Source: Escherichia coli
Lineage (GTDB): Bacteria; Pseudomonadota; Gammaproteobacteria; Enterobacterales; Enterobacteriaceae
Direction: 5' to 3' (one strand)
Length of the DNA stretch: 64,000 bases
Assembly (NCBI RefSeq): GCF_036507355.1
Contig: NZ_AP027877.1
In this document: piece after piece, positions 2,458-20,806 of the stretch
How the letters are laid out: every line of letters begins with the position of its first letter
Position numbering within the stretch: the first letter of the stretch is position 1
Program-made: the position numbers and the translations under genes
Notes under the pieces: generated by a model
Seen by the model: only the letters and a program-made list of their open reading frames with translations
The model's database searches: none
Told to the model about the DNA's origin: nothing

Positions 2458-3096
2458 TCAAGATTTAATAACATTTACTACAGATTTGAAAATATCGGTT
2501 TTGCGTGATTCATCATCTACATGGATAAAGGAAACGAGTTTCCTGCCTGCTTTAATCAGGATACCGCGTTGCGTCTTTTCCACAGACGGGGTAACGTGTG
2601 CAGATAACAGACAATGTTCATGTAAATGAAGAAACTTTTTTGAGGCGTAGCCGCCATGTAATCGGGCTTGAATGTCAAGATACATATCATCAAGAGAACC
2701 GGGTTCTCCTGATTCACTCAATACCGGATAACCCTTCTTATCAAAGAGGTTAAGGATAGATTTACTATCATGTTCGAACAGGGTAACACCGTAAATGTAT
2801 TTCATTCGAAAGGTGAGGGAATCGGTGGTGTAGACCTCCTCCTGACGATTGAAATTTTTGAGACGCCTGGCTAATTCATTAAAAACAGCACGAGCAGTAG
2901 CCGTGTCCTGCAGGGTGTAGGTATAAAGTACGAAGCCATCTGTGCCGATGAGCTTTACTAAGTTGTCCATAATCGTGATAGCGAGAACTAATGCAAAGGA
3001 TAGATATTTTTCATCGTTGTCTACAGCTGTGTTTGCTGCTTCAGGAAGAATGTTCAGTGCATTATTAGCATTATTTGCTGTGTTCTTAGTAACCAT
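2458..3096 (-). CDS. Hypothetical protein, 212 aa, between the Xis-like gene and piPolB
   Basis: ORF track; start overlaps the stop of the upstream Xis-like gene by 11 nt; same strand as piPolB; no recognisable motif. Confidence 0.55.
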   Translation of the reverse strand: MVTKNTANNANNALNILPEAANTAVDNDEKYLSFALVLAITIMDNLVKLIGTDGFVLYTYTLQDTATARAVFNELARRLKNFNRQEEVYTTDSLTFRMKYIYGVTLFEHDSKSILNLFDKKGYPVLSESGEPGSLDDMYLDIQARLHGGYASKKFLHLHEHCLLSAHVTPSVEKTQRGILIKAGRKLVSFIHVDDESRKTDIFKSVVNVIKS

Positions 3097-3286
3097 TTAT
3101 ATCACCTTTAAGTTTGTTTTGACGATGTGCATTTTCCCACTCAACAATATCATCAAGAGAGAATCGTATAGCCCGCCCAATTCTGATGAAGGGCGGGAGT
3201 TTTCCGGGGTTGCGCGATATATCTGACGCAACCGTGGATGCAGAAAGATTAAATCTTTCTGCGAACTGCTTAATGGTTAAATACAT
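3086..3286 (-). CDS. AlpA/Xis-like helix-turn-helix excisionase or regulator, 66 aa
   Basis: Small basic protein MYLTIKQFAERF...RIGRAIRFSLDDIVEW typical of AlpA/Xis-family HTH proteins; sits immediately downstream of the integrase on the same strand. Confidence 0.6.
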   Translation of the reverse strand: MYLTIKQFAERFNLSASTVASDISRNPGKLPPFIRIGRAIRFSLDDIVEWENAHRQNKLKGDINGY

Positions 3287-3436
3287 AAACCTCCGGTTTC
3301 AGAGAATAAGAAGCCACGCGGATTTAATATCAATCCACATTCTGTGATGACTTAATGCAGGGCCCTGCAGAAGCATGCAATGACAATACCGTCCTTAAAC
3401 GAGTGTTGCATCAATCACGAATCACAGATCATAGGT

Positions 3437-4564: not shown

Positions 4565-4663
4565 CGTATTTCTCCTGTAAATGACACTGGAAAAATACGA
4601 TGTGAGGTTATAGTCTGCCAGTTACAGCTTTCACAGTTCATCAGGTGAAAAATGCTGATTCGG

Positions 4664-4699
4664 ATATAATGGCAACACAATTCCATGTCGCCATTATAT
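4664..4699. promoter_or_regulatory. Imperfect inverted repeat (ATAATGGCAAC ... GTCGCCATTAT) between ORF 4707-5837 and the integrase start
   Basis: Read directly from the sequence; could be a terminator for the upstream ORF or an operator in the integrase leader. Confidence 0.35.
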
Positions 4700-4706
4700 T
4701 AAGAAA

Positions 4707-5837
4707 CTACAGTTTCATGATCTTGTTCGCTATTTTTTCGAAGTAAACCTCATTCTTAAGAAGAGTGATATTGTTAGTTTGAACACCCAGACCACTGGAG
4801 GTTGACTGGAAGTTGAGTGAACCACTTATCACGGTGGACTTTCCTGATAAAAATGAAATCAACTCCTTGGAAGATGGTGCCCACTCAGGGTTTAAGAGTA
4901 ATGCAATGTAGATATATGTCTTACGAAGCAATTGTTCGATATCTTTTTTATACCCCGTAGTGTTTTGCTTACCTTTAATGCAAATTGATTTGATTATGAA
5001 CTCATCAGGGCTGGTTAAAGGCGTTTTAAACTTATTCAGTGATCCATCGTTATGAATGACTTCATAAGGCAGCATAGATAAAATGATCAATGCAATCATT
5101 TTAGGATGATAAAGGTAGTTATCACGAATGATTTTTCCTGCCTTCATTGTATTGAGTGTTGTTTGAATAAATACAAAAAGATATTCAGAGCAAAAGTAAC
5201 AAAACACAAGCCAGGATAGGTCAATGGCTGGAATGTTAATATCCTTAGGTAGTTTGTTTAGCCAGTATTCAGACTTCAAAAAGGTCCTGATTTCAACAGT
5301 ATATTCATGCATTTTTGCGCTGAAATCAAGCATTGCTACTTGACCTGATTGTTCCGTAACTGTGTGGTCTATAAATGTTAGTGTATTGCACATTTTATCC
5401 AGCGTGTTTTGAAAACAAGAAAGGAGTTCGGCATTATTATTACCATTAACCGCAGATGAAAGTTCAGTTGCAATAAATGCATCCAGTAGCATACAGATTT
5501 TTTTCGGAATGACATTTTTACGGGATTGCTGTGAATAGAAATATACTGCCAGTAAATTAAAGGCAGTGCACTCCTTTTTTAACCATTGTTCGAGCACTGG
5601 GACGTGCTGAAAAAAATTGATATGCTTAGCAGTAGATGCTGATGGAGATAGTACATGAAGAATATCTACAGCAGGCTTCATTTGCAATATTTGATCGGAT
5701 TCGGTAGTCGTCATTAGTTCCAGTAATTGCTGTTCAGAAAATAGTTTAGACAGGTGATCAATGTCTTTTTGGTATTGGTTAAGTTTTTTTAAATTCCCCG
5801 GTACACGGGTTACATTGTTTTTCATTTTCTCGAACAT
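4707..5837 (-). CDS. Hypothetical protein, 376 aa, AT-rich, no recognisable domain
   Basis: Long ORF in the track; low-GC codon usage; no Walker A, HEXXH or nuclease motif seen. Confidence 0.6.
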   Translation of the reverse strand: MFEKMKNNVTRVPGNLKKLNQYQKDIDHLSKLFSEQQLLELMTTTESDQILQMKPAVDILHVLSPSASTAKHINFFQHVPVLEQWLKKECTAFNLLAVYFYSQQSRKNVIPKKICMLLDAFIATELSSAVNGNNNAELLSCFQNTLDKMCNTLTFIDHTVTEQSGQVAMLDFSAKMHEYTVEIRTFLKSEYWLNKLPKDINIPAIDLSWLVFCYFCSEYLFVFIQTTLNTMKAGKIIRDNYLYHPKMIALIILSMLPYEVIHNDGSLNKFKTPLTSPDEFIIKSICIKGKQNTTGYKKDIEQLLRKTYIYIALLLNPEWAPSSKELISFLSGKSTVISGSLNFQSTSSGLGVQTNNITLLKNEVYFEKIANKIMKL

Positions 5838-6239
5838 AATTTTATCCTCGTTTGAATTAATACACTGATTTAAAAAGTAGCATGTCGTGTTAGCGAGGTA
5901 ATCCTAAAACGTGAATGGGATCAGGGGCAAGCTTGAATCTGCGTAAGGATATGGCTTAAATTTAATGGTGTAATTAGTGGATTAGAGGCTTATAGCTATT
6001 TAAATACAATAAGTTATGACGGTGTGTGGCGGGTGTAAATCGGTTAGTTTTTATGGTTAAAATATGAGCGCTATGAGGTTTCAGAGATGGTGGTGTTTAA
6101 ATTACATAAAACCAAGGCCTGATAATCAGTATCAATACCGGAACGATGTCATATGATTAACACTGTCTATGGCATTGATAATGATCTATGCAAGGCTGAA
6201 ATTAGCTCTGCTTCACGATGATATAGTGTTCTATAAAGA

Positions 6240-7475
6240 TTAAAAGGAAATAAACAGAGCCTTTCGCCGATGAATCAATGTGCTGATTTCCCTCAAATCA
6301 GCCTCAATACTACCAACATCACCAAAGACTTCACCTCTAATCTCACTTCGATTTTTCATGAAATTGGTGCTTAATAAGCTTTCTTTTTTTAATGCCATTA
6401 ATTTTGGTTTTATATCGTTATAGAAATGCTTACGGCTTACCCTGATGCTATGAATCGAGTAGTAAACTGTTTTATACATCAAAAATATAAGTAACTGGCC
6501 GAGAAGATATTCTTTTTCAATGTATTTATATTGAGAGGATTTTTCGCGTTTCGCCAGGTAGAAAACATGAGGTGCGATGATGGTGGGGATAAAATCCAGT
6601 GCTGGAGAGGTTTTGGTTTTTTCTGTTTCTCTTCCGGATTGAAGATGTTGAAGTACAGAGTATACAATGCTTAAAATTATGGCGTTACTTATATTATTAA
6701 TTGCAGTTGGGTAAATATGCAGATTGCTTATCAATTCTGAAAGGCAAAGTAAAACACCAGTGATGTTGGGTTTTCTGCCGGAGATTGTGGTGCTGTTGAA
6801 AATGTGACGATTCTTACGACTTATATTGACAAGTTTATGAGTGCAGAACTCTATATGTTCGACGATTTTATCTTGACTATTTTTAATGTATTTTGAAATG
6901 TTAGTGATCCGGCCATTCAACGTTAGTTCATCAAGCAATATATCATTTTTAATATTGCGAATTTCATCGCAATGTTCACATTGAGAAACTATCTCATGTA
7001 ATACATAACTCGAAGTATTGCGTGACGATGCTGATATGTAATCTAAAATGGAATGCTCGACTTTGATTTTTTGTTTGTATTTTTTAATGCACTGTTTGAT
7101 TGTTTTTTGTAGAGTATTTGAGATGTGTTTTTTATATTCTTTTAGAAAATCTTGCTCTAAAAAGAGTGAGGAGAAGATCAACTGCTGGCGAGATAATTTA
7201 ATCTCAGGCTTGATCAATTTAATCCGAAAAACTCTTCCCTCCAACTCATAGCTGAACATGGAAGATAAGTCATAGTGGGGTGATAAATGTTCGAGTAACG
7301 ACATTCGTGTATTCATTAGCCGCTTGAATTTATGGTCAGCATACATAAGTGTTTTTTTTATTTGCTCATCATAAAGTGGGCCGATAGCGCAGTTGGCAAT
7401 ACTCATTCTATCCGGAGACCTCCAGTCAGCAGGGGAATCACATTGACGGTCATCATTACTATCAAAGGGCATCAA
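6240..7475 (-). CDS. Hypothetical protein, 411 aa, AT-rich, no recognisable domain; has hydrophobic segments
   Basis: Long ORF in the track; divergent from hsdM across a ~300-bp intergenic region. Confidence 0.6.
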   Translation of the reverse strand: MMPFDSNDDRQCDSPADWRSPDRMSIANCAIGPLYDEQIKKTLMYADHKFKRLMNTRMSLLEHLSPHYDLSSMFSYELEGRVFRIKLIKPEIKLSRQQLIFSSLFLEQDFLKEYKKHISNTLQKTIKQCIKKYKQKIKVEHSILDYISASSRNTSSYVLHEIVSQCEHCDEIRNIKNDILLDELTLNGRITNISKYIKNSQDKIVEHIEFCTHKLVNISRKNRHIFNSTTISGRKPNITGVLLCLSELISNLHIYPTAINNISNAIILSIVYSVLQHLQSGRETEKTKTSPALDFIPTIIAPHVFYLAKREKSSQYKYIEKEYLLGQLLIFLMYKTVYYSIHSIRVSRKHFYNDIKPKLMALKKESLLSTNFMKNRSEIRGEVFGDVGSIEADLREISTLIHRRKALFISF

Positions 7476-7778
7476 CGTTGCCGATTATGGATGATGTCAG
7501 CTTCACACACCAGTACGGGTGATATATGGATCATCATTACCCCAACGGCAGTTTTACACCATGGCTAATATGGATGCTATCTTACTAAGATAATTGGTTT
7601 TTAGCGAGTGACGAGCCAGGTTGTGTCAGTCTGTCTCATGTCGATATTACGGGGATGATGCAAACCTGAATGCTGCGATATTGGCGTGTCAGGGGAGGCA
7701 TCTTACGGTATCATTTACCGCAATTTTTAAGATGCAAAGCCCTGCATCGCTAGCTTTTTCTTCAGACCAGGATGATTC

Positions 7779-9302
7779 ATGAACGACAAAATCAGTCAGG
7801 ACACGATCAACAAAGCCCTGTGGGCCGCGTGTGATACGTTCCGTGGCACCATCAGTGCTGATACCTATAAAGACTTTATCCTTACCATGCTGTTCCTCAA
7901 GTACATTTCAGATGTCTGGCAGGATCACTACGACGAATATAAAGTGCAATATGGCGATGCGCCGGAACTGATTGAAGCGATGATGGCGAACGAGCGCTTC
8001 GTGTTGCCGAAAAGCGCCAGTTTCTATGCGTTGTACGAGCGACGTCATGAGCCGGGCAACGGTGAGCGTATCGATCAGGCGCTGCATGCGATTGAAGAAG
8101 CCAACGGCACCAAACTGAAAGATGCCGGGAAAAGTGTCTTCCAGGATATTTCGTTTAACACTGACCGTCTGGGCGAAGAAAAACAGAAGAACACCATCCT
8201 GCGTCAGTTGCTGGAAGACTTTGCCGGTGAAGATCTTAACCTGAAGCCAAGCCGTGTCGGTACGCTGGACGTTATCGGTAATGCTTACGAATATCTGATC
8301 AAAAACTTTGCTGCCAGCGGTGGGCAGAAAGCCGGGGAATTCTATACCCCGCCGGAAGTTTCGGACCTGATTGCTGAACTGCTCGATCCGCAACCGGGTG
8401 ATACCATCTGCGATCCGGCCTGTGGTTCGGGTTCATTGTTGATGAAGTGTGGGCGTAAAATTGTCTCCGGGCATGATAGTCGTAACTATGCATTGTTCGG
8501 TCAGGAAGCGATCGGTTCTACGTGGTCGCTGGCGAAAATGAATATGTTCCTGCACGGGGAAGACAACCATAAAATCGAGTGGGGCGATACCATTCGTAAC
8601 CCGAAGCTGCTCGATAAAAATGGCGACCTGATGCTGTTTGATATCGTGACCGCTAACCCACCGTTCAGCCTCGATAAGTGGGGCCATGACGAGGCCGAGA
8701 ACGATAAGTTTGGCCGTTTTCGTCGCGGTGTACCGCCGAAGACTAAAGGAGATTACGCTTTTATCTCGCATATGATCGAAACCCTGAAACCGGGAACTGG
8801 CCGTATGGGCGTAGTTGTGCCACACGGTGTGCTTTTCCGTGGCTCCAGCGAAGGTAAAATTCGCCAGAAACTGATCGACGAAAATTTGCTGGATGCGGTA
8901 ATTGGTCTGCCGGAAAAACTGTTCTACGGTACGGGGATTCCGGCTGCGATTCTGATTTTTAAAAAGCAGAAAGTTGATGACAAGGTGCTGTTTATCGATG
9001 CCAGCCGTGAATTCAAGGCAGGTAAAAACCAGAACCAGCTTAGCGAAGAAAACATTAAGAAAATCGTCAAGACCTACCGTGATGGCGATAACGTCGAGAA
9101 ATACGCCTATCTTGCCAGCCTGAAGGAAATTCAGGACAACGACTATAATCTCAATATCCCGCGCTATGTCGATACCTTTGAAGAAGAGGATGAGATTGAC
9201 CTGCTGGCGGTGCGAGCAGAACGCGAGCAACTGAAGGCGGAATTGGCGAAGCTGGAAACGGAGATGGCTGGATATTTGAAGGAGTTGGGTTATGGCTCGT
9301 GA
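7779..9302 (+). CDS. hsdM: Type I restriction-modification system, DNA methyltransferase subunit M
   Basis: 507 aa; N6-adenine MTase motifs including DIVTANPPF and the AdoMet-binding region DPACGSGSLL. Confidence 0.95.
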   Translation: MNDKISQDTINKALWAACDTFRGTISADTYKDFILTMLFLKYISDVWQDHYDEYKVQYGDAPELIEAMMANERFVLPKSASFYALYERRHEPGNGERIDQALHAIEEANGTKLKDAGKSVFQDISFNTDRLGEEKQKNTILRQLLEDFAGEDLNLKPSRVGTLDVIGNAYEYLIKNFAASGGQKAGEFYTPPEVSDLIAELLDPQPGDTICDPACGSGSLLMKCGRKIVSGHDSRNYALFGQEAIGSTWSLAKMNMFLHGEDNHKIEWGDTIRNPKLLDKNGDLMLFDIVTANPPFSLDKWGHDEAENDKFGRFRRGVPPKTKGDYAFISHMIETLKPGTGRMGVVVPHGVLFRGSSEGKIRQKLIDENLLDAVIGLPEKLFYGTGIPAAILIFKKQKVDDKVLFIDASREFKAGKNQNQLSEENIKKIVKTYRDGDNVEKYAYLASLKEIQDNDYNLNIPRYVDTFEEEDEIDLLAVRAEREQLKAELAKLETEMAGYLKELGYGS

Positions 9303-10566
9303 TTCGCTTTACCCAGTGAGCGTTAAAGCTGGAAAACCGATCCTTGGAATGCTACCTACAGGATGGCAAAAGTTATCATTAGAAAAGTGCTTAAATATAG
9401 AGGCAAGAAAGGCATATATACAAGATAATCAAGAGTATGACTTAGTTACAGTAAAGCGCTCCAGAGGTGGCGTAATAAGACGTGAGCATCTTAAAGGAAA
9501 AGATATCTCCGTAAAAAGTCAATTCTATATTAAAGAAGGCGACTTTCTCATATCAAAACGACAAATTGTGCACGGTGCTTGCGGTCTTGTACCTAAAGAA
9601 CTTTCTGGCTCAATTGTATCGAATGAATATTGTGTGCTTACAGGGAAGTCCGGTTTTTATCTTCCTTATATGGAATTTCTATCGGAGTCTCTATATTTCC
9701 AGCAAACCTGCTTCCACTCTAGCATTGGTGTGCACATAGAGAAAATGATTTTTAAGTTAGATAGTTGGTTTAAGTGGCCATTTAATATCCCCCCACTGTC
9801 TGAACAAAAGAGAATCGTTAAAATCCTGTCAACCTGGGATAAGGCGATTTCGGTGACGGAAAAGCTTCTCACCAACAGTCAGCAGCAGAAAAAAGCCCTG
9901 ATGCAGCAATTGCTTACCGGGAAAAAACGCTTGCTGGATGAGAGGGGGGTGAGGTTTAGTGGGGAGTGGAAGAGAGTAAAACTGGGTGCGATAGCCGATA
10001 TGAACAGTGGAGGTACTCCGAAATCAACGGTTGAAGAGTATTATGGCGGGAATATCCCATGGGTATCTATTTCTGATATGACATCTAATGGAAAGTGGAT
10101 TGCTACAACTGAAAAATATCTGACTGAATTAGGATTGAACAGTTCATCCGCAAGAATATATCCAAAAAACTCGGTTCTTTATGCTATGTATGCTTCTATA
10201 GGTGAATGCAGCATTGCTGCTGTAAATTTAACATCTTCGCAGGCAATCTTGGGTATTAGACCAAAAGATTGTTTAAATTATGAGTTTTTATATTTCTATC
10301 TTACATCATTAAAAGAAAAAATAAAACTGCAAGGCCAGCAAGGTACACAGTCCAACCTAAACGCCGGAATGGTTAAAGAGTTTGAACTAGACTTACCCAG
10401 TATAAGAGAACAACAAAAAATCGCCGCCGTCCTGTCCGTCGCCGATGCCGAAATCTCCACGCTGGAGAAAAAACTCGCCTGCCTGAGAGATGAGAAAAAA
10501 GCCCTGATGCAACAGCTACTGACTGGCAAACGTCGTGTTAAGGTCGATGAGGCGGTTGCCGAATGA
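9292..10566 (+). CDS. hsdS: Type I restriction-modification system, specificity subunit S
   Basis: 424 aa; two AT-rich target-recognition domains separated by the repeated conserved segment KKALMQQLLTGKKRL / KKALMQQLLTGKRRV; start overlaps the hsdM stop by 11 nt. Confidence 0.95.
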   Translation: MARDSLYPVSVKAGKPILGMLPTGWQKLSLEKCLNIEARKAYIQDNQEYDLVTVKRSRGGVIRREHLKGKDISVKSQFYIKEGDFLISKRQIVHGACGLVPKELSGSIVSNEYCVLTGKSGFYLPYMEFLSESLYFQQTCFHSSIGVHIEKMIFKLDSWFKWPFNIPPLSEQKRIVKILSTWDKAISVTEKLLTNSQQQKKALMQQLLTGKKRLLDERGVRFSGEWKRVKLGAIADMNSGGTPKSTVEEYYGGNIPWVSISDMTSNGKWIATTEKYLTELGLNSSSARIYPKNSVLYAMYASIGECSIAAVNLTSSQAILGIRPKDCLNYEFLYFYLTSLKEKIKLQGQQGTQSNLNAGMVKEFELDLPSIREQQKIAAVLSVADAEISTLEKKLACLRDEKKALMQQLLTGKRRVKVDEAVAE

Positions 10567-11246
10567 AACTGACGAAAAGCGGTCCACTGACTGACCGGGA
10601 AATCGACTGGCTGGAAGAAATATTAATGAAGTATGGAATGGATGATTCTGTACTCTGTTTCTCTGAGCTGGATGGATTGCTGACGGCGATTTTATCAGGT
10701 CCAAATATGGTTTCACCCAATATCTGGCTGAGTGCTATTTGGGGAGGAGGCGATTATCATCCGAAATGGTCATCTGAGAGAGAGATGGAGCGTTTTGTCA
10801 GTCTGTGTTTTCAGCATATGAACGATATCGCTGGTTGCCTTTATGACGCCCCTGAACTGTTTGAGCCGATTTTCAATGAGCGTGAGGTAAAGGGGGAAAA
10901 ATATACCATTGTGGAAGAGTGGTGTTTTGGTTATATGAAAGGAAAGTCACTGGATGACTGGTCTGGTCTTCCCGGTGAGTTACGGCCTTCTCTGGAAGTG
11001 ATCGCTCTTCATGGCGTGGAGAAGAATTTTCCTGTACTTGAGAAAATGACCAGAGAGCAGTTTGAGAAAAGTATTTCCCTTATTAAGCCTGCTGCACTGG
11101 CACTTTATCAGTACTGGTTGTCAGTGAGAATGTCAGAGGCATCATCCCGGCCTGTTCCAGTGAAGGGGGCAGAAAACATGCCCGGGCGAAATGACCCGTG
11201 TCCGTGTGGCAGCGGTAAAAAATTTAAGAAGTGCTGTCTGCATTGA
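10563..11246 (+). CDS. YecA/UPF0149-family protein with C-terminal SEC-C metal-binding motif, embedded between hsdS and hsdR
   Basis: 227 aa; C-terminal [20 protein letters not shown]; colinear with chromosomal YecA (20141-20806) along its whole length; ATGA overlap with the hsdS stop. Confidence 0.85.
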   Translation: MKLTKSGPLTDREIDWLEEILMKYGMDDSVLCFSELDGLLTAILSGPNMVSPNIWLSAIWGGGDYHPKWSSEREMERFVSLCFQHMNDIAGCLYDAPELFEPIFNEREVKGEKYTIVEEWCFGYMKGKSLDDWSGLPGELRPSLEVIALHGVEKNFPVLEKMTREQFEKSISLIKPAALALYQYWLSVRMSEASSRPVPVKGAENMPGRNDPCPCGSGKKFKKCCLH

Positions 11247-11295
11247 TGAATCTTCATGTGACCAGTAGCGAGTAGCGCCAGAAAGAAAAGGATTA

Positions 11296-14200
11296 ATGAT
11301 GAACCAGACGTACACGCCTAAATTCCAGGAAGAATACAGCGCCAAAATTCCGGCACTGACGTTACTGACCAGCCTCGGCTGGACGTTTTTATCTCCGAAA
11401 CAGATTATGGATTACCGGGGCTATAAACAGGATGAGGTGGTGCTGCGTCCGGTTCTGCGTGAAGAGCTGTCGAAGCGTTCCTTTATGGCGGGTGGCAAAA
11501 CCTGCCAGTTATCGGAAAAAGCACTGGATAACCTGATATCACAGGTCTGTTCTCCGGCGCTGAATGAAGGGCTGCTCAAAGCCAATGAACGGATGTATAA
11601 CCATCTGCTCTACGGTATCGCCGTCACGGAGTTTGTCGATGGCAAGAAGGTGAACCCCACCATTGCGCTGATCGACTGGGAACATCCGGAAAGTAACCAG
11701 TTCCATTTTACCGAAGAATTTACGGTATTGCGGTCAGGCGGTGTCGAAACCCGCAGGCCGGATATTGTGTGTTTTGTGAATGGTATCCCGCTGGCCGTCA
11801 TTGAAGCGAAAAGCCCGGCGGGTCACGGCAAGAAAGGGCCAACCATTGACGAAGGGATATCCCAGAGTATCCGCAATCAGCTCAACGACGAAATCCCGCA
11901 GCTGTTTGCTTACAGCCAGATATTACTGTCGATTAACGGGCATGACGGGCGCTACGGTACCTGTCATACACCAATGAAATTCTGGGCGGCATGGCGCGAA
12001 GAAGATATTACTTACGCGCAGATGTATGCGCTGCGCAACCATAAGTTATCGACTGAACAAATTCATGCGTTGTTTGATGATCGTCCTTCAGTCGATCTCA
12101 AATGGTATCAACAGTTAATCGATGGGGGGGAACTGGCAGTCAGCGGGCAGGATAAGCTGCTCATCAGTCTGCTTTCACCGGAACGTCTGCTGGAGATGAC
12201 CCGCTTCTTCACCCTGTTTGATAAAAAAACCGGAAAAATTGTTGCCCGCTATCAGCAGGTGTTCGGTATTAAAAGACTGCTGGAACGCATCAGTACCCGC
12301 AGACCAGACGGGGGCAGGGAAGGTGGGGTGATCTGGCATACCACGGGGTCAGGTAAATCTTACACCATGGTATTCCTCAGCAAGGCGCTGATTCTTCATG
12401 ACAGCCTGAAGCAGTGTCGTATTGTGGTGGTGACGGACCGCGTGGACCTTGAAGGGCAGCTCAGCGGCACTTTTGTCTCTGGTGGCGAACTGGCAGGGAA
12501 GGATGATAAGGCCAAAGCGATGGCAACCTCAGGTCAGAAGCTGGCACAGCAGATTGGCTCTGGTAAAGAACGTATAATCTTTACCCTTATCCAGAAATTT
12601 AACTCAGCGACAAAATTGCCTGAATGCGTCAACACCAGCCCCGACATCATCGTTCTGATTGATGAAGGACACCGTAGCCAGGGTGGTGAGAACCATGTGC
12701 GAATGAAACTGGCACTGCCGAACGCCGCCTTTGTGGCATTTACTGGTACGCCATTGCTAAAAGAAGATAAGACCACCAATAAATTCGGGCCGATTGTCCA
12801 CGCTTATACCATGCAGCGAGCGGTAGAAGATAAAGCCGTTACACCTTTGCTGTATGAAGAACGTATTCCCGACCTTGAGGTTAACGATCGGGCAATAGAT
12901 GCCTGGTTTGATCGTATTACCGATGGGTTAAGCGAAGCGCAAAAAGCCGACCTTAAGCGTAAATATGCCCGTAAAGGTGAGGTTTATAGTGCAGATGATC
13001 GCATCCGTCTGATCGCACTCGATATCGCCACGCACTTCTCGAAGAATATTGATGAGGGGCTGAAAGGCCAGCTTGCCTGCGACAGCAAGATTTCCGCCAT
13101 CAAATATAAAAAGTATCTTGATGAAGCCGGGTTGTTTGAGTCAGCAGTAGTTATCAGCCCGCCGGATACCCGGGAAGGGAATACCGAAGTGGATGAAAGC
13201 AAACTGCCGGAAGTGACGAAATGGTGGAAGGATAATGTCGGCACGCAGGATGAGTCTGTGTATACCCGTAATATCATCAGTCGTTTCGATACCGATGAGA
13301 AGCTCAAATTGCTGATAGTCGTTGATAAACTGCTCACCGGGTTTGATGAGCCGAAGAATACCGTGCTGTATATCGACAAGCCGCTTAAGTCCCACAACCT
13401 TATCCAGGCGATTGCGCGGGTGAACCGACTGCATCCACTAAAAAAGTTCGGTCTGCTGATTGATTATCGCGGTATTCTGGCTGAGCTGGACACGACTATC
13501 GGCAAATATCAGGACCTCGCCTCCCGAACTCAGGGCGGATACGATATCAAAGATATTGACGGGCTGTACAGCGCCATGAGCTCTGAATACAAGCGCCTGC
13601 CGCATCTGTATAACCAGCTGTGGGCCATATTTGCCGGTGTTAAAAACAAAAATGATACTGAGCAGTTACGTGCGGTACTGGTGCCTAAAATGGAAGAACG
13701 TGACGGAGAGATGGTCGATATCCATCAGAAAACCCGTGATGATTTCTTCGAGGCGTTAACGGCCTTTGCCGGATGCCTGAAAGTGGCACTGCAGTCCGCT
13801 ACCTTCTTCACCGACAAGAGCTTTACGGAACAAGACCGAAATCTCTATAAAGAAACCGTAAAACAGATGTCCAGCCTGCGCCAGTGGGCGATGCAGGTAA
13901 GTGGAGAGCAGGTCAATTATGACGACTACGCTGAGCAGGTGAAAAAACTGCTGGATAAGCATGTCACCGGCGTTGAGGTTCGTGAACCGGATGGCGTGTA
14001 TGAAGTCGGTAAAATGGGCAAGAGCGAAAAGCCCGAAGAGTGGGACAACAATAAAACCCGCAATGAAACCGACATCATTAAAACCCGCGTGACGAAGATG
14101 ATTGAGCAGGAATTGCGTGATGACCCGTATGCTCAGGAGGCATTTTCAAAACTCCTGCGTATGGCTATCGAAGAGGCTGAAAAACTGTTTGACCATCCGC

Positions 14201-14583
14201 TGAAACAGTACCTTTTGTTCCGTGAATTTGAAGAACAGGTTGAAGCCCGTAAGCTCAGCGATATCCCGGATGCACTGGCGGTAAACAAGCATGCTCAGGC
14301 GTATTACGGTGTATTTAAAAAAGAGCTACCTGAGGTTTTTGCGGTAAACGACGTTCAGGTGCAGGATAAGTGGACCAAGCTGGCTTTTGAAGTGGACAAC
14401 ATTATCGTCAAAGCGGTGGCAGAAAACTCCCTGAACCCCCAGGACATTGAGAAAGTCGTTAAGACAAGTCTGCTACCACTGCTGTTTACGGCCTGCCGGG
14501 AAATTGGTGCCGGAATGAATCAGGTTAACCGTATTGTGGAAACCATCATCCAGATACTGCGCGTTGGTTTGATGAAATCATGA
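11296..14583 (+). CDS. hsdR: Type I restriction enzyme, restriction (helicase-nuclease) subunit R
   Basis: 1095 aa; Walker A TGSGKSYTM and DEAH-box LIDEGHRSQ; typical HsdR N-terminus. Confidence 0.95.
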   Translation: MMNQTYTPKFQEEYSAKIPALTLLTSLGWTFLSPKQIMDYRGYKQDEVVLRPVLREELSKRSFMAGGKTCQLSEKALDNLISQVCSPALNEGLLKANERMYNHLLYGIAVTEFVDGKKVNPTIALIDWEHPESNQFHFTEEFTVLRSGGVETRRPDIVCFVNGIPLAVIEAKSPAGHGKKGPTIDEGISQSIRNQLNDEIPQLFAYSQILLSINGHDGRYGTCHTPMKFWAAWREEDITYAQMYALRNHKLSTEQIHALFDDRPSVDLKWYQQLIDGGELAVSGQDKLLISLLSPERLLEMTRFFTLFDKKTGKIVARYQQVFGIKRLLERISTRRPDGGREGGVIWHTTGSGKSYTMVFLSKALILHDSLKQCRIVVVTDRVDLEGQLSGTFVSGGELAGKDDKAKAMATSGQKLAQQIGSGKERIIFTLIQKFNSATKLPECVNTSPDIIVLIDEGHRSQGGENHVRMKLALPNAAFVAFTGTPLLKEDKTTNKFGPIVHAYTMQRAVEDKAVTPLLYEERIPDLEVNDRAIDAWFDRITDGLSEAQKADLKRKYARKGEVYSADDRIRLIALDIATHFSKNIDEGLKGQLACDSKISAIKYKKYLDEAGLFESAVVISPPDTREGNTEVDESKLPEVTKWWKDNVGTQDESVYTRNIISRFDTDEKLKLLIVVDKLLTGFDEPKNTVLYIDKPLKSHNLIQAIARVNRLHPLKKFGLLIDYRGILAELDTTIGKYQDLASRTQGGYDIKDIDGLYSAMSSEYKRLPHLYNQLWAIFAGVKNKNDTEQLRAVLVPKMEERDGEMVDIHQKTRDDFFEALTAFAGCLKVALQSATFFTDKSFTEQDRNLYKETVKQMSSLRQWAMQVSGEQVNYDDYAEQVKKLLDKHVTGVEVREPDGVYEVGKMGKSEKPEEWDNNKTRNETDIIKTRVTKMIEQELRDDPYAQEAFSKLLRMAIEEAEKLFDHPLKQYLLFREFEEQVEARKLSDIPDALAVNKHAQAYYGVFKKELPEVFAVNDVQVQDKWTKLAFEVDNIIVKAVAENSLNPQDIEKVVKTSLLPLLFTACREIGAGMNQVNRIVETIIQILRVGLMKS

Positions 14584-15335
14584 GTGAAAAAGAATCGCCA
14601 TCAATGAAAGCGTTACGCATTGTCTATGGTGATGATGTCATCACCGTACAGTGTGTTCCGCGTCAGGTCGTAAAGGGCAGGGTGCTCATCAAGGTTTATC
14701 CGGACTGCCGGGTTGTGGCCTCTGTACCGCCTGAAACACCGGAGCACGAGGTATTGTCTGCGCTGAAAAAAAGAGGGCGCTGGATATACCAGCAACTGCG
14801 TGATTTCAGGGAGCAACAGACACACATTGTTCCGCGTCAGTATGTCAGCGGAGAAAGCCATTATTATCTCGGTAAGCAATATCAGTTGAAAGTGACAGAA
14901 GACGCTACTGTGCCGCAACGAGTGAAAATGTTGCGTGGGCGTCTGGAAGTGACTGTCAGACACAAATCGGCAGAAAAGATTAAAGCCTTGCTGGCTGAAT
15001 GGTATCGGGAACGTGCCAGAGATGTTTTTCAGCGCAGGCTTGATTTACTGATTCCGCAGACCCTTTGGGTCAGTGAGCGTCCTCCGATACGTCTGCGGGC
15101 GATGCAAACGCAATGGGGCAACTGTTCAGCAAAAGGCTGTCTGACCCTGAATCCATGGCTGGTTAAGGCATCCTCAGAATGTATCGATTATGTTTTGCTA
15201 CATGAGTTATGCCATGTGGCTGAGCACAACCACAGCGAGGAGTTTTACCGTCTGATGGGGCAGGTTATGCCTGGGTGGGAAAAGGTCAAGAAACGACTGG
15301 ATGGGATGGCTGGGATGTTGTTGGCTGATATGTAA
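14580..15335 (+). CDS. DUF45 / YgjP-like (M48-type) zinc metallopeptidase, translationally coupled to hsdR
   Basis: 251 aa; HEXXH motif HELCHVAEHNH near the C-terminus; ATGA overlap with the hsdR stop. Confidence 0.8.
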   Translation: MSEKESPSMKALRIVYGDDVITVQCVPRQVVKGRVLIKVYPDCRVVASVPPETPEHEVLSALKKRGRWIYQQLRDFREQQTHIVPRQYVSGESHYYLGKQYQLKVTEDATVPQRVKMLRGRLEVTVRHKSAEKIKALLAEWYRERARDVFQRRLDLLIPQTLWVSERPPIRLRAMQTQWGNCSAKGCLTLNPWLVKASSECIDYVLLHELCHVAEHNHSEEFYRLMGQVMPGWEKVKKRLDGMAGMLLADM

Positions 15336-15393
15336 CTTATCAATATGAGTTCTTAAGGGTTTGGTCAGTCTCGTTAATGTAGGGAGTATAATA

Positions 15394-17232
15394 ATGAGTA
15401 AGTTAGATAATAAAATTGAAGCACGCCATCGTAATTTGTTTGATGTTCTAAATGCGCAAAAATATACCGTTGATTACTTTCAGCGCGAGTATAGCTGGGG
15501 TGAGAAACATATTGAAGAGTTGGTTACAGACTTAACATCTGCGTTTCTCAATGAATACACCGTCGGTGATTCTCGGGAGCAGGGTGAAAACTACAATAAT
15601 TATTACTTAGGACCATTTGTTGTGAGTAGTAAAGATGGGAAACGGAGTATTATTGATGGTCAGCAACGACTGACTTCATTAACTTTATTTCTAATTTACC
15701 TCCATAACCTTCAGAAAGAACTTAAATATGAAGAGAAAATAGAATCAATGATTTTCTCCGAGTTACGTGGCAGCAAATCATTCAATATAGTAGTTGAAGA
15801 CAGAATACCTTGCATGGAAGCATTGTTTAATTTTGGTAGCTATAGTTTAGTTGATGGGGATGATGAGTCAACCCATAACATGGTGGAGAGATATCAGAAT
15901 ATCACAGATGCTTTTCCTGATGAATTAAAAGGTCAGGCTTTTCCTTTTTTTATCGACTGGCTTAAGTATAACGTTATTATGGTTGAGATAGTTGCCTATT
16001 CAGATGAAAACGCATATACCATCTTTGAGACTATGAATGACCGAGGATTAAATCTTACTCCGTCCGAAATGCTTAAAGGTTTTTTACTTTCACGCTTTCA
16101 TCAGGGAGATAAACGCCAAAAGGTAAATGAACTCTGGAAAAAAGCGATGATGGATTTAAAAAACTATGATAAAGATGAAGACCAACGTTTTTTCCAGTCA
16201 TGGTTGCGTGCTCAATATGCTGATACAATACGCCCGGGTAAAGCTGGTTCAAAAAATGAAGACTTTGAAAAAATAGGTACGCGTTTTCATAGCTGGGTTA
16301 GAGATAATCTTCAGGCGGTGGGATTGGACCCAGATAATGGTGAGACATTCGAACGATTTATACAAAAAAACTTTTTGTTTTATTTGAATGCCTATACACA
16401 AATACTGAATGCTGAGAGAGCATTAACGCACCAACTGGAATATGTATTTTATATCCACCATTGGGGTATTGCACCTACTTTAAGTTTCCCTTTGATGTTG
16501 GCTCCATTAAATGTAGGTGACAGTCCTGATGCTGTGATAGCCAAAATAAACCTGGTGGCGCGCTATATTGAAACATTTGTTGTTCGTCGTTCTGTTAATT
16601 TCCGAAAATTCTCTGCCAGTTCTATTCGTTACACAATGTACAGTCTTGTTAAAGAAATTCGTGGTAAAAGTATTGAAGAATTAAAAGATTTGTTATCTAA
16701 GAAGTTATCCGAAATGCCAGATACTTTTGCAGGAATGGAAGAGTTTCGTCTCCATGGTCAAAACTATCGTTTTGTGAAGTTTTTGCTTTCTCGTATAACT
16801 GCGTGGGTTGAGCAGCAAGCCGGAATGAGTACAACCTTCATTACATATTATCAGCCAGAACACGGTAAGCCATTTGAAGTCGAGCATATTTGGGCCGATA
16901 AATATGAACGTTACTCTGATGAGTTTGAACAAGAGCACGAATTTAACAATTACAGAAATCGCTTAGGTGATTTGGTTTTATTACCTAGAGGCTCAAACCA
17001 GTCATATGGTGATTTGTGTTACGATCAAAAGCAACCTCATTACATCAAAGAGAATCTCCTGGCTAAATCGTTATGCCCATTGGCATATATGAATAACCCT
17101 AATTTCAATCAGTTGAGAAATGTATTCGGATTGCCTTTCAAACCACATGATTCATTTAAAAAACAAGATGTCGATGAACGACAGTCTTTGTATAAAATAA
17201 TTTGTGAGAATATTTGGGACCATAATTTATAG
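15394..17232 (+). CDS. DUF262 (ParB-like, DGQQR) / DUF1524 (His-Me finger) protein, GmrSD-like type IV restriction candidate
   Basis: Motif IIDGQQRLTSL in the N-terminal half; C-terminal EVEHIWADKY...NRLGDLVLLPRGSNQS. I place the start at ATG 15394 with SD agggag 7 nt upstream; the track uses TTG at 15361. Confidence 0.75.
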   Translation: MSKLDNKIEARHRNLFDVLNAQKYTVDYFQREYSWGEKHIEELVTDLTSAFLNEYTVGDSREQGENYNNYYLGPFVVSSKDGKRSIIDGQQRLTSLTLFLIYLHNLQKELKYEEKIESMIFSELRGSKSFNIVVEDRIPCMEALFNFGSYSLVDGDDESTHNMVERYQNITDAFPDELKGQAFPFFIDWLKYNVIMVEIVAYSDENAYTIFETMNDRGLNLTPSEMLKGFLLSRFHQGDKRQKVNELWKKAMMDLKNYDKDEDQRFFQSWLRAQYADTIRPGKAGSKNEDFEKIGTRFHSWVRDNLQAVGLDPDNGETFERFIQKNFLFYLNAYTQILNAERALTHQLEYVFYIHHWGIAPTLSFPLMLAPLNVGDSPDAVIAKINLVARYIETFVVRRSVNFRKFSASSIRYTMYSLVKEIRGKSIEELKDLLSKKLSEMPDTFAGMEEFRLHGQNYRFVKFLLSRITAWVEQQAGMSTTFITYYQPEHGKPFEVEHIWADKYERYSDEFEQEHEFNNYRNRLGDLVLLPRGSNQSYGDLCYDQKQPHYIKENLLAKSLCPLAYMNNPNFNQLRNVFGLPFKPHDSFKKQDVDERQSLYKIICENIWDHNL

Positions 17233-17290
17233 CAAAGTTAGGGTGTTAATTAATCTGTAATGGCATCATGATTTTTAAAAGGAGGTTGAA

Positions 17291-18418
17291 TTGCGTTCTG
17301 AAACGTTTTTTGTCAAATTTATTGAACAACTGAAAGGTATTTCGGTTGAGGATGATGTTGAATTCAATTTTTTTGAATTGGGTGGTTCCGGATATCTCGA
17401 AAATCCAACTACGGATTTGATGGCTTTGTTTATGGGAGCCCAGAAAATGGTGCCGCCATGGTTGCTCAAAGCATTGCTATGTTGCCTGGATGATTCCCTC
17501 GATGTTGATGAAATTGATTTCACTTCTCTGGAGCTAATGAGAGAGGCCCGAACAGAAGATGGGAAATATATTGATATTCTTATCAGACATGATGAATTCA
17601 TTATAGGTATTGAGCATAAAGTTCTGGCTGATACATATAATCCTTTTCCCAGCTATGTAAGTCTCATTGATAGTTACGGCGGCAACAATCAAAAACTATT
17701 TCGCTGTATATTAAAGCCTGACGGTAACAGCGCTAAAGGCGTAGACGGTTGGCAACTGATCAATTATTCACTGCTGCTGGAAACCGCCATTCGACGTCTG
17801 GGGTTGGAGATGATGAATCAAGAGTTCAGCAAGTGGACTGTTTTTTATCAGGAGTTTTTAAGTCATCTTAAAAAATTGAGTGAGGTTAGTATGGATAAGG
17901 TATCTGATAAAAATGTGGAGTTTGTCACTGAAAATTTCTCAGCTTTGATAAAATCGGTTCAACTGCTGGAAATGTACCAAAATGCTATCACCGAGGAAGC
18001 TAAATCGGTTGTCTCAGAGGTATTGCCTGATATTCATATTGCAACAGGTATTAATAACTGGAAGGGTTACTATAAAGCAATTCATCTGATGCCGGGATGC
18101 TGGGGGCAAGGTAAAACAGGAATTACGTTAGTTTATCGCCCTTCAGAGGATGGACGAGATGAAGCTGAGTTCTACGTATATGGATGGATACATTCAGATG
18201 ATTACCCTGAAGTTAATGCACTAAAAGAAGAAATAAGAGTTGCTTTAAGTGCTGGAGATTTCATTCCAACAGCTAGCCCTGAGGACTATGAAGTATCAAT
18301 TACTGGGAAGGGGAAAGTGCTTGAACTGAGTTTTTGGGGGAATACGAGAAGCAAAAAAGATGCACTGGTTCTTCTTAAGGATATGACTAAGTGGATGGAC
18401 TCAAAAATAAGAACATAA
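17291..18418 (+). CDS. Hypothetical protein, 375 aa, with PD-(D/E)XK-like motif
   Basis: TTG start preceded by strong SD aaaaggagg; YIDILIRHDEFIIGIEHKV resembles a D...E-x-K nuclease core; remainder has no recognisable domain. Confidence 0.5.
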   Translation: MRSETFFVKFIEQLKGISVEDDVEFNFFELGGSGYLENPTTDLMALFMGAQKMVPPWLLKALLCCLDDSLDVDEIDFTSLELMREARTEDGKYIDILIRHDEFIIGIEHKVLADTYNPFPSYVSLIDSYGGNNQKLFRCILKPDGNSAKGVDGWQLINYSLLLETAIRRLGLEMMNQEFSKWTVFYQEFLSHLKKLSEVSMDKVSDKNVEFVTENFSALIKSVQLLEMYQNAITEEAKSVVSEVLPDIHIATGINNWKGYYKAIHLMPGCWGQGKTGITLVYRPSEDGRDEAEFYVYGWIHSDDYPEVNALKEEIRVALSAGDFIPTASPEDYEVSITGKGKVLELSFWGNTRSKKDALVLLKDMTKWMDSKIRT

Positions 18419-18522
18419 AGTAATATGACTGAGTGATGACGATCTTTTTTAAATTGTGGATTATTAGGCTGGTAATTGAAGCGCCGAATAGACAGATATT
18501 GGAATAAAAGGAGAATATTCAA

Positions 18523-19704
18523 ATGATTTATCAGTGTGATACTTGCAGTAGAACGACTTTTGAGGTTAATTGTCCCTGGTGTAGTGGAGTTTCGCCTGTA
18601 AAAACGTCTGCATGGGGTTCAGCATCATCGACCGCACAAGCAATAGGCATACAACGTATGACACCATTGAATCCATCGTTTTATCCCGAATTTCAGTATC
18701 GTTCAAAGGGTGTTCTAAAAGATCTATTTGGGAAAAAGAAAGAGCAAACTCAGCTTAATCAATTGCTTGAAAATGTTCTCAAAAAATACTCCAGTTTAAA
18801 AGATCCATATTTTACTAACTTCATTTACACTTCCAGATTCTCACATAATAATAAATCGGAAGCAGATTACTCAACAGATAATGGTACATACTCCGAATTA
18901 CAACTTTTCCGTGAGGTGTTGGTCAGAAAAGGGTTCAATGAGCTTGAGCAGTTACCTGAGCTATTAGATAAATTACTCCTTACCACGTCATTTAACGCTC
19001 TTTATTATGGTTTCGCTAAGGAAGTTAAACGGCATATTAAATCCACACTTACTGAATCCTTGAAGTCATGGATTGAGGAAGCGGGTACCACTTTTAGGGC
19101 AGATCTTTCATTGTTTCTATTCTATATATGGAGCAATAAAATAGAGTTCTCATCAGTAGAGTTCAATGAAAAAGCGGAGGCTACGCCTGGTGTTCCTTTA
19201 GTTTCATTTGATGAAGTTAAAAAATACTTAGCTGTGTGCGAACATATTTATTTTGATATTCTGGTTGATAGATTAGCTACACGGCTCGAACATTTTAACC
19301 CTAACAAATTCGTCACCATGTATTTAGTTGATGCAATGGACGGTTTCCAGTTTGAAGATTTCCTTGTGGAAGTATTCCAGACTATGGGCTATGACGTCAA
19401 AGAAACCAAGAGAACGCAAGATCAGGGGGCAGATCTCTTCGTCACTCGATTTGGTAAGGATATGGTTATTCAGGCGAAAAATTATTCTGGTTCTGTAGGT
19501 AACTCGGCGGTGCAGCAGGTGATCTCTGCTAAAACATTCTATGGTTGTGATGAGGCGATGGTTGTGACTAATTCCTACTTCACACGCTCTGCCAAAGAAT
19601 TAGCTGAATCAGCCTTGGTACGTTTGATCGACAGGGATGAACTGCAAAAGTATCTGGATGATTACAATCAGAAGATAATTGAAGATTTCCAGTCAAACTC
19701 GTAA
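18523..19704 (+). CDS. Restriction endonuclease-like protein: N-terminal Cys4 zinc-ribbon plus C-terminal Mrr catalytic domain
   Basis: N-terminus CDTCSRTTFEVNCPWC; C-terminus GADLFVT...VIQAKNYSGSV...VVTNSYFTRSAKELA...LIDRDEL, colinear with the E. coli Mrr catalytic region as I recall it (D...Q-x-K). Confidence 0.75.
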   Translation: MIYQCDTCSRTTFEVNCPWCSGVSPVKTSAWGSASSTAQAIGIQRMTPLNPSFYPEFQYRSKGVLKDLFGKKKEQTQLNQLLENVLKKYSSLKDPYFTNFIYTSRFSHNNKSEADYSTDNGTYSELQLFREVLVRKGFNELEQLPELLDKLLLTTSFNALYYGFAKEVKRHIKSTLTESLKSWIEEAGTTFRADLSLFLFYIWSNKIEFSSVEFNEKAEATPGVPLVSFDEVKKYLAVCEHIYFDILVDRLATRLEHFNPNKFVTMYLVDAMDGFQFEDFLVEVFQTMGYDVKETKRTQDQGADLFVTRFGKDMVIQAKNYSGSVGNSAVQQVISAKTFYGCDEAMVVTNSYFTRSAKELAESALVRLIDRDELQKYLDDYNQKIIEDFQSNS

Positions 19705-19889
19705 CTTTGCAGTCATATAGATATAGCAAAGGACAGGTAGGCCTCCGTGAGAGGGGGACTTACCTGTGCAGATTCTGTGCTCAAAGTTATCCAAGTCTAT
19801 CTATTTACTGCCAATTACAGTAAAATGAGTAAGCAATTACAGCAAAGTTTCGCAATGCACTGCTATGTAACTCATTGATCCTGCGTAGA

Positions 19890-19945
19890 ATTTAAAATCC
19901 CTCGGCGTTCGCGCTGTGCGGGTTCAAGTCCCGCTCCGGGTACCA
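19890..19945 (+). repeat. 3'-terminal 56 nt of tRNA-Leu (leuZ-type; anticodon loop to CCA), the att-site remnant at the right boundary of the element
   Basis: ATTTAAAATCCCTCGGCGTTCGCGCTGTGCGGGTTCAAGTCCCGCTCCGGGTACCA matches the 3' part of tRNA-Leu(UAA) as I recall it; the 5' acceptor and D-arm are absent upstream, so this is not a complete tRNA gene. Confidence 0.8.
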
Positions 19946-19988
19946 TGGGAAAGATAAGAATAAAATCAAAGCAATAAGCAGTGTCGTG

Positions 19989-20013
19989 AAACCACCTTCG
20001 GGTGGTTTTTTTG
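19989..20013 (+). terminator. Rho-independent terminator (aaccacc ttcg ggtggtt + T-run) downstream of the tRNA remnant
   Basis: Perfect 7-bp stem, 4-nt loop, run of 7 T. Confidence 0.65.
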
Positions 20014-20140
20014 TGCCTGCAACTTGTCGTTACACCCTCCTTAATTTTTAATCACCGGCAAAGCCACTCAAAAAGTATCTCTGATACGGACCGGCATGTA
20101 AGATAGGTGTTGGCGAGTTGAGATCCACAAGGAAAAGCGT

Positions 20141-20806
20141 ATGAAAACGGGACCGTTAAACGAAAGTGAGTTGGAATGGCTGGACGATATTCTGACCAAA
20201 TACAACACTGACCACGCCATCCTTGATGTGGCGGAGCTGGACGGTTTATTGACGGCGGTGTTGAGTTCTCCGCAAGAGATTGAACCGGCACAGTGGCTGG
20301 TTGCCGTGTGGGGTGGGGCTGACTATGTGCCGCGCTGGGCGTCAGAGAAAGAGATGACGCGCTTTATGAACCTGGCTTTTCAACATATGGCCGATACCGC
20401 AGAGCGTCTGAACGAATTCCCGGAGCAGTTTGAGCCGTTATTCGGCTTGCGAGAAGTTGATGGCAGCGAGCTGACGATTGTTGAGGAGTGGTGCTTTGGC
20501 TATATGCGGGGCGTGGCACTTTCTGACTGGTCAACATTGCCCGATTCGTTAAAACCAGCGCTGGAGGCGATAGCGCTGCACGGTACTGAGGAAAACTTCG
20601 AGCGGGTAGAGAAGATGTCGCCAGAAGCGTTTGAAGAGAGCGTAGATGCCATTCGACTGGCGGCGCTTGATCTACATGCGTACTGGATGGCGCATCCGCA
20701 GGAAAAAGCTGTTCAGCAACCGATCATAGCAGAAGAGAAACCGGGGCGTAACGATCCTTGCCCGTGCGGTAGTGGTAAGAAATTTAAGCAGTGCTGCCTG
20801 CATTAA
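20141..20806 (+). CDS. yecA: UPF0149-family protein YecA with SEC-C motif (chromosomal copy)
   Basis: 221 aa; ends [20 protein letters not shown]; position between tRNA-Leu and tyrP as in K-12. Confidence 0.9.

Follow-up and report, generated by a model that had tools for sequence, protein, structure and literature searches.

What placed half of a tRNA-Leu gene between a block of defence genes and chromosomal yecA, and to which genome did each part of the junction originally belong? We addressed this question in a stretch of 64,000 nucleotides of Escherichia coli DNA (the window), whose positions 19,705 to 20,013 had been annotated from the sequence as the junction between an island and the chromosome. 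In the explanation that we consider highly probable, a pipolin integrated site-specifically at the anticodon loop of leuZ, and the segment from 19761 to about 20024 is its tRNA-distal attachment site, named attR if the orientation of the tRNA is followed and 'attL' in pipolin papers. The kind of feature is a textbook one, and the instance is a published one: two att repeats have been described for these pipolins, and the junction holds one of them.

The tRNA-Leu fragment and the chromosomal flank

The 56 nt at 19890-19945 (plus strand) are an exact match to the last 56 nt of K-12 leuZ (tRNA-Leu UAA, nt 32-87 including CCA), and no longer exact leuZ suffix occurs in the window. The fragment starts with the base preceding the anticodon loop, ends with CCA, lacks the 5' 31 nt of the tRNA and has the same orientation as the intact gene, which corresponds to type A of the Islander classification. 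A 55-mer and a 25-mer taken from the 3' end of the tRNA were each found once in the window and never in 100 shuffles. ARAGORN predicted no tRNA gene in the whole 64 kb, and 19890-19945, which does not form a complete cloverleaf, is thus a displaced fragment of the native leuZ 3' end and not a gene. The initial annotation had described the same piece, from the anticodon loop to CCA and without the 5' half, and had made its reading depend on the lack of a complete tRNA at this place; with none predicted in the window, the reading stands.

The window is collinear from 19890 on with K-12, where the leuZ-yecA site is empty (3 mismatches in 400 nt), the island arm lying to the left and chromosomal yecA following at 20141-20806 (plus strand; open reading frame and RefSeq annotation of relatives). 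This alignment, which had been proposed as a check, agrees with the annotation of an island-chromosome junction followed by yecA, whose start is at 20141. As a mere boundary the feature has annotation value only: the right end of the pipolin is fixed to the base, and the fragment should not be listed as a tRNA gene.

The island and its tRNA-side end

The island is a pipolin, a class of mobile element that has been described in several studies (Redrejo-Rodriguez 2017, PMC5695915; Flament-Simon 2020, PMC7385651; ExplorePipolin, PMC9710591; Mateo-Caceres 2024, PMC11551731). Its left part in the window is the gene for piPolB, a primer-independent family-B DNA polymerase (1-2411, minus strand), the last 63 codons of which lie beyond the left edge and which was recognised by its catalytic residues and motif. 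The 866-aa PolB of the related strain RM14721 carries D59/E61, D368 and K613-H614-X8-K623-T-R625-G, i.e., KH-X8-KTRG, together with a weak Pfam match to DNA_pol_B_2, and the same residues and motif define the piPolB of E. coli 3-373-03_S1_C2 (PMC5695915). Two further genes of the minus strand follow: an HTH_17 excisionase-like gene at 3086-3286 (Pfam HTH_17, E = 5.9e-9 for the product of 16086-16286 in a relative's locus, L003, whose position 13001 is window position 1, an offset of 13000) and, beside it, a second tyrosine recombinase of the IntP2 type at 3437-4564 (Pfam Phage_integrase and Phage_int_M). The latter, whose role in pipolins has been described (PMC11551731), is 27% identical to the leuZ-proximal integrase of the IntSXT type and, at only 24% identity, not close to the leuZ-specific integrase of P2-like prophages.

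The core of gammaproteobacterial pipolins consists of IntSXT on the tRNA side, DUF2787, and IntP2 with an excisionase next to piPolB (PMC11551731); here IntP2 and HTH_17 are in the window, while the IntSXT-type gene and DUF2787 were found in RM14721, to the left of the window. Between 7779 and 19704 (plus strand) the element carries defence cargo, namely a type I restriction-modification system (hsdM, hsdS, a YecA-like gene and hsdR), an M48 peptidase, GmrSD (DUF262), a PDDEXK_4 nuclease and an Mrr-like endonuclease, as identified through the RefSeq annotation of relatives and Pfam. E. coli pipolins reside at a tRNA-Leu between pgsA and yecA (PMC11551731) and have conserved att-like direct repeats at both ends, the Leu-tRNA gene overlapping with one of the two (PMC7385651; PMC9710591), and a 26-kb 'leuZ-associated island' has been listed for an APEC O78 genome (PMC4313913). 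The present island thus shares with the published ones the element class, the site, the core of two recombinases and piPolB, and the repeats (PMC5695915; PMC7385651; PMC9710591; PMC11551731). Excision of E. coli pipolins has been reported as negligible or undetectable (PMC7385651), and their mechanism 'still needs to be confirmed in vivo' (PMC9710591).

The window begins inside the island, and the tRNA-side repeat was therefore placed from near-identical genomes, its intactness in this strain being assumed from these relatives; of the two flanking att repeats, the yecA-side copy is in the window and the tRNA-side copy is seen in the relatives only. RM14721 is the closest complete genome (99.2% identical over window positions 1-20400), and MY203L1 is 99.9% identical over an 801-nt junction query (19600-20400). 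In RM14721 the glyW-cysT-leuZ operon is intact; it lies about 6.6 kb left of the point that corresponds to window position 1 and precedes the gene for a 399-aa integrase with the Pfam domains Arm-DNA-bind_3 and Phage_integrase, and the operon and integrase are laid out in the same way in MY203L1. The matching repeat on which the initial annotation had staked its interpretation is therefore present at the other end of the element in both genomes, outside the window. Exactly two copies of it occur at the RM14721 locus, bounding about 28 kb, and with up to 4 mismatches allowed no third, internal copy, such as would mark two tandem islands with one integrase each, was found in the window or in RM14721. 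The initial annotation had interpreted the fragment as the direct-repeat scar of an integrase; the repeat and the adjacent integrase are borne out in the relatives, but the repeat is about 133 bp long and not 56 nt.

Trailer RNA and terminator within the repeat

Alignment of both island ends with K-12 shows that the direct repeat extends from 19890 to about 20022, past the CCA end and through a 67-nt trailer and its terminator, the last similarity between attL and attR lying at 20013-20024 (plus strand). The 67 nt that follow CCA are annotated in the K-12 record as the small regulatory RNA 3'ETS-leuZ (b4759), and the window holds a copy at 19946-20012 (plus strand) that is identical to it in 67 of 67 nt, terminator included. 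This RNA is cut by RNase E from the glyW-cysT-leuZ precursor and acts as a sponge of RyhB and RybB (PMC6191717; bioRxiv 10.1101/2021.04.25.441314), both articles citing Lalaouna et al. (2015). Two of the four pipolin papers (PMC11551731; PMC7385651) make no mention of the start of the repeat in the anticodon loop, of 3'ETS-leuZ or of the operon terminator. The overlap between the pipolin repeat and 3'ETS-leuZ was not found in the limited literature that we searched, which is no proof of novelty. The repeat used to delimit E. coli pipolins is, in other words, the 3' half of leuZ plus a sponge RNA plus a terminator.

The Rho-independent terminator of the glyW-cysT-leuZ operon (plus strand; hairpin 19988-20009, U-run 20006-20012) is documented at the end of 3'ETS-leuZ (PMC6191717). 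Its hairpin has 9 pairs and a UUCG loop, with a folding energy of -12.5 kcal/mol (z = -3.25), and none of 200 shuffles folded as well. The native terminator hairpin that had been annotated at 19989-20013 was correctly placed, and it is native since its sequence is identical to that of K-12. A consensus terminator scan missed it; the probable cause is pairing between the A-tract and the U-run, by which fewer unpaired U's remain than the rule of the scan demands. The assignment rests instead on folding and on the K-12 annotation; having overlooked a known terminator, the same scan gives only weak evidence with its blank result after the Mrr-like gene. An Rfam search of 19300-20400 returned only sub-threshold, terminator-like hits (STnc130 and sroD), Rfam holding no model of 3'ETS-leuZ.

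Unlike its K-12 counterpart, the window copy has been severed by the island from the glyW-cysT-leuZ promoter and is preceded by half a tRNA only. ARAGORN found no tRNA gene in the 19.9 kb of the window upstream of it, and in RM14721 about 28 kb of island separate the yecA-side copy from the tRNA operon. The trailer that now stands behind the intact leuZ is the element's. In RM14721 and MY203L1 it differs from K-12 by four changes (G>C, A>C and deletion of AA), all inside the equivalent of window positions 19953-19965, and differences at four positions in this A-rich 5' part occur in many strains. Given that the window trailer is identical to K-12 while the leuZ-side trailer is a variant, the yecA-side copy is, judging from the alleles, the displaced native one, and the copy serving the tRNA operon is by the same token element-derived. 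Since the repeat includes 3'ETS-leuZ, strains with an occupied leuZ carry two copies of the sponge, the operon-attached one being that of the element. This duplication is relevant to studies of RyhB and RybB buffering in strains other than K-12 and to the design of 3'ETS-leuZ probes.

All the alleles examined agree in the terminator and in the stretch with predicted pairing to RyhB and RybB. Duplex predictions gave the native and the element copies similar energies; these calculations ignore intramolecular structure, yield unrealistically long duplexes and were used only to judge the sameness of the pairing segment. [quoted passage not shown]

An intact copy of a regulatory RNA downstream of plus-strand genes raises the prospect, compatible with integration of the pipolin at leuZ, that the yecA-side copy would also work as a second 3'ETS-leuZ gene, fed by read-through from the defence genes and released by RNase E, so that the buffering of RyhB and RybB would be raised or re-timed. 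We regard this as unlikely. The 67-nt RNA and its terminator are indeed complete and K-12-identical, the predicted pairing segment is kept with similar duplex energies, and two copies are present in many strains. The Mrr-like gene has the same orientation, with its end 185 nt upstream, and the sole hairpin in between (14 pairs, 19733-19767, reaching from the spacer after that gene into the right arm of the element; -32.4 kcal/mol, z = -2.83) has no U-run. No promoter-like site was found, however, on the plus strand from 19008 to the fragment, and 3'ETS-leuZ is normally released from a tRNA precursor, whereas the transcript here would be the 3' end of an mRNA with a half-tRNA. Moreover, the copy is fully accounted for as a passive by-product of integration.

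Crossover, attachment arms and occupancy of leuZ

The leuZ fragment begins one base 5' of TTTAAAA (19891-19897, plus strand), the anticodon-loop sequence, which the comparison of attB with attP-like junctions suggests as the presumed strand-exchange (overlap) region: attB reads AAGGGA-TTTAAAA-TCCCT and the attP-like junctions read GTAGAA-TTTAAAA-TCCCT. Chimeric tRNAs confine the crossover to the stretch from nt 13 to the variable arm. That of Buttiauxella warmboldiae joins a 5' half of the Buttiauxella (host) type to a 3' half of the element type, and in E. coli SCPM-O-B-8794 the T stem is of the element type and contains a compensated pair (GTGGG/CCCAC). These chimeras, together with the fixed left boundary, place the exchange in the anticodon loop, from which we infer that the cleavage points themselves would lie within TTTAAAA, and the native trailer allele on the yecA side puts the crossover to the left of 19953. 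The initial annotation had spoken of insertion into the 3' end of the tRNA: integration at the tRNA is supported, with the exchange point in the anticodon loop instead.

A scan for the element-type trailer, covering one genome per species, brought up tRNA-side junctions in Shimwellia, Buttiauxella, Intestinirhabdus and a further E. coli, all of them sharing the left arm. The scan demanded 37 exact bases, and the apparent conservation of these bases in several genera is therefore no evidence of selection. In Buttiauxella massiliensis (n = 2) and B. noackiae (n = 1), junctions in the attP configuration occur between tandem elements, in the order right arm, 56 nt, element-variant trailer, terminator and left arm. 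These tandem junctions, although from other species than the present E. coli strain, directly show in sequence form what the element carries.

The conserved right arm of the pipolin (the P arm of attP; 19761-19889, plus strand) was delimited by alignment of E. coli with Buttiauxella, in which similarity starts abruptly at a pair of CTGTGC motifs and continues through to the core. The preceding spacer, which follows the Mrr-like gene (19705-19760, plus strand), is variable. Neither RM14721 nor Buttiauxella shares the sequence ahead of about 19745-19761, which is cargo-specific, and cargo insertions occur around the spacer, such as the 1.76-kb SIR2 gene that RM14721 carries just inside its right end and that is absent from the window. 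The pair, CCTGTGCAGATTCTGTGCTCA with its two CTGTGC repeats (19763-19783, plus strand), lies 115-128 nt from the loop in 6 of 6 junctions from two genera. A near-copy (18 of 21 positions, same orientation) is found in the left arm of a relative (L003 6505-6525), about 20 nt after the terminator, and by a rough estimate the chance probability of such a match between two stretches of about 200 nt is near 5e-4. Nine of 10 aligned left arms keep the pair; in the remaining one, from B. noackiae, the second repeat alone is retained, and it is altered. As the leuZ-proximal integrase has an Arm-DNA-bind_3 domain, and in view of their conservation, we interpret the CTGTGC motifs as putative arm-type binding sites of the integrase.

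On this basis, integration may be pictured as follows. The circular element would carry an attP of about 300 bp. Between a P arm and a P' arm, each with two CTGTGC motifs, this attP would contain, in this order, the core GTAGAA-TTTAAAA-TCCCT, the 3'-terminal 49 nt of a tRNA-Leu and a copy of the 3'ETS-leuZ trailer, terminator included. Of the two recombinases of the element, either of which may act, the IntSXT-type enzyme (Arm-DNA-bind_3 plus catalytic domain) is the one proposed here, and it would exchange strands in the 7-nt anticodon-loop sequence of leuZ. The gene would be rebuilt from its own 5' 31 nt and the element's 3' half, trailer and terminator, while the native 3' half, 3'ETS-leuZ and terminator would be pushed to the far end of the island, beside yecA. 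There the half-tRNA cannot give rise to a tRNA and would serve as the recombination partner for excision, and the displaced native terminator would still shield yecA from read-through. The excised circle is predicted to run from ...CTGCGTAGA of the window across the junction into ATTTAAAA..., joined to the element-type trailer, the terminator and the left arm. The anticodon-loop crossover, the chimeric tRNAs and the attP-like junctions thus lend sequence-level support to an att-mediated mechanism for pipolins.

Sublocation classes of tDNA islands were reportedly distinguished by Williams in 2002. A precedent for the long repeat is phage HP1 of Haemophilus influenzae, whose attP shares a block of about 180 bp with a tRNA operon and has its crossover in an anticodon loop, so that the phage rebuilds the tRNA gene together with the sequence downstream. 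It differs from the leuZ case in host, tRNA operon and element, and we know of no regulatory trailer RNA at the HP1 site. In the Islander collection the anticodon loop is the commonest subsite among the mapped tDNA islands (2,083 of 3,919; PMC4383910), and the pipolin resembles these anticodon-centred islands in its anticodon-loop crossover, in the gene regenerated at one end and in the 3' tDNA fragment displaced to the other. It differs from them in that its identity block runs about 77 nt past the tRNA, through the trailer RNA and the terminator, since the operon ends with leuZ.

The same target is used by P2-like prophages (HB6 and H3), which share the TTTAAAA core of attB, leave a similar displaced fragment by yecA and also carry the 3' half of the tRNA, the trailer and the terminator, their trailer being nearly of the E. 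coli type. Their arms (a P2-type arm ending in ...GGTGGTTGATAGTT) and gene content are, in contrast, unrelated to those of the pipolin, and the P2-type integrase lies at the yecA end of its prophage. The frequency of such occupants was estimated from 5,426 complete E. coli genomes. The site was empty, with leuZ and yecA contiguous, in 3,790 of them (70%) and the interval was interrupted in about 1,635 (about 30%); the right junction of the present element was found in 548 genomes and its left end in 553, i.e., about 10% are occupied by a pipolin. About 1,080 occupied sites (the interrupted ones minus about 553) are of a non-pipolin type, and both of those that were opened, HB6 and H3, hold P2-like prophages. 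It could therefore be asked whether the fragment stems from a P2-like prophage, or from some other leuZ-targeting element since lost, and not from the present island. The shared core (HB6 attR, GATAGTT-TTTAAAA-TCCC), the like fragment and the number of non-pipolin sites would fit such an origin, which we nevertheless judge very improbable: the 129 nt immediately before the fragment constitute the right arm of the pipolin, which is conserved between the pipolin junctions of E. coli and those of Buttiauxella and differs from the P2-type arm; no P2 genes are present in window positions 1-19704; and the closest genome has just two repeat copies, which bound the element.

Homologous exchange between the 133-bp repeats does occur, as deduced from the homogenised copies of the decayed pipolin EcE.ESBL.COL, which has lost both integrases and piPolB and in which both repeat copies have the native trailer, and it can blur the inference of the crossover. 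Yet an origin of the repeat in local duplication or general homologous recombination, independent of a site-specific integrase, is hardly credible even with a repeat long enough for RecA-dependent exchange and that one homogenised lineage, given that the left boundary lies exactly at the anticodon loop in every junction of two element families, next to integrases and conserved arm motifs and with precise empty sites in 70% of genomes.

Site-specific integration of the pipolin has a possible consequence at the population level. A 125-nt block comprising the 3' part of leuZ and the trailer (query L003 6367-6491) is present in 7,103 copies in 5,424 genomes, from which it follows that many strains carry two. 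It might accordingly be speculated that leuZ-targeting elements, pipolins and P2-like phages alike, routinely swap the 3'ETS-leuZ of the host for an allele that they bring along, the native one persisting as an island-driven second copy. The buffering of the sRNAs RyhB (iron stress) and RybB (envelope stress) would then be set by a mobile element in about 30% of E. coli strains, and would differ measurably in the genomes with the four-change allele. This proposal is one to which we give little credence. The four-change allele itself was found in at least 221 E. coli genomes, a lower bound, since other element alleles (e.g., one with a UCCG loop) share the 95-99% identity band with the native one.

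Probable exchange of leuZ 3' ends

The leuZ anticodon-loop core used by pipolins is also used by P2-like prophages in E. coli HB6 (L006 20269-20470 and L015 1322-1680; attR GATAGTT/TTTAAAA/TCCC) and in strain H3 (L005). The tRNA 3' half, the 3'ETS-leuZ trailer and the terminator are brought in by these prophages in versions of their own, and the HB6 version has one changed base in the trailer as well as a shortened U-run.

The apparently intact leuZ genes adjacent to pipolins in Buttiauxella warmboldiae and E. coli SCPM-O-B-8794 were found to be chimeras. In B. warmboldiae (L009 2428-2514) a host-type 5' half is joined to an element-type 3' half, which leaves the acceptor stem with G-U pairs at its two ends; in SCPM-O-B-8794 (L008 2921-3007) the T stem is of the element type, with a compensated pair change.

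The leuZ trailer of Serratia rubidaea NCTC12971 is identical to the pipolin-borne allele over its 5' 43 nt but differs from it in the terminator hairpin (L014 1180-2960). Just 1.58 kb further downstream there is a second copy, which follows a half-tRNA. These features suggest that the element allele is similar to the trailer of other Enterobacterales and that a very small element occupies the S. rubidaea leuZ site.

Integrase-less and decayed elements

In Buttiauxella massiliensis, two attP-like junctions (right arm, 56 nt of leuZ, variant trailer, terminator, left arm) were located 6.7 kb apart on the minus strand, with their anticodon-loop sequences near L010 860 and 7601. Neither an integrase nor piPolB was found in the unit between them, whose only content is an AAA ATPase, an Mrr-type nuclease and proteins without a family match; it looks like att-flanked cargo devoid of an integrase that has accreted in tandem with a pipolin. 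PMC11551731 reported no re-infection by pipolins in Enterobacterales.

A decayed pipolin is present in E. coli EcE.ESBL.COL (L018 635-15470), in which an IS3 element takes the place of the region that normally contains both integrases and piPolB, and the type I restriction-modification (R-M) and GmrSD cargo is retained between two repeats, both bearing the native trailer allele. Cargo was variable immediately inside the conserved right arm (window about 19705-19760): RM14721, the closest complete genome, has a SIR2 gene there (L003 32809-34308) which is missing from the window. In other relatives an IS1 or a cold-shock-domain gene is found at other points of the cargo.

Right arm, terminator and YecA-family gene

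The right arm includes two copies of CAATTACAG, at window 19812-19820 and 19834-19842, spaced by 22 nt. RM14721 has one of the two in degraded form, and in Buttiauxella both are only loosely conserved, as AACTACAGC; the pair could represent an additional candidate protein-binding site or have arisen by chance.

Negative results of the consensus terminator scan need caution, since it missed the experimentally known terminator at window 19988-20012, which folds strongly despite this.

A YecA-family gene (UPF0149 and SEC-C; window 10563-11246, plus strand) lies between hsdS and hsdR in the type I R-M operon of the island. Protein comparison gave 57% identity between its product and the YecA encoded by the chromosomal gene that adjoins the insertion site (20141-20806, plus strand); this resemblance to the neighbouring gene could reflect either coincidence or an ancient capture of the adjoining yecA.
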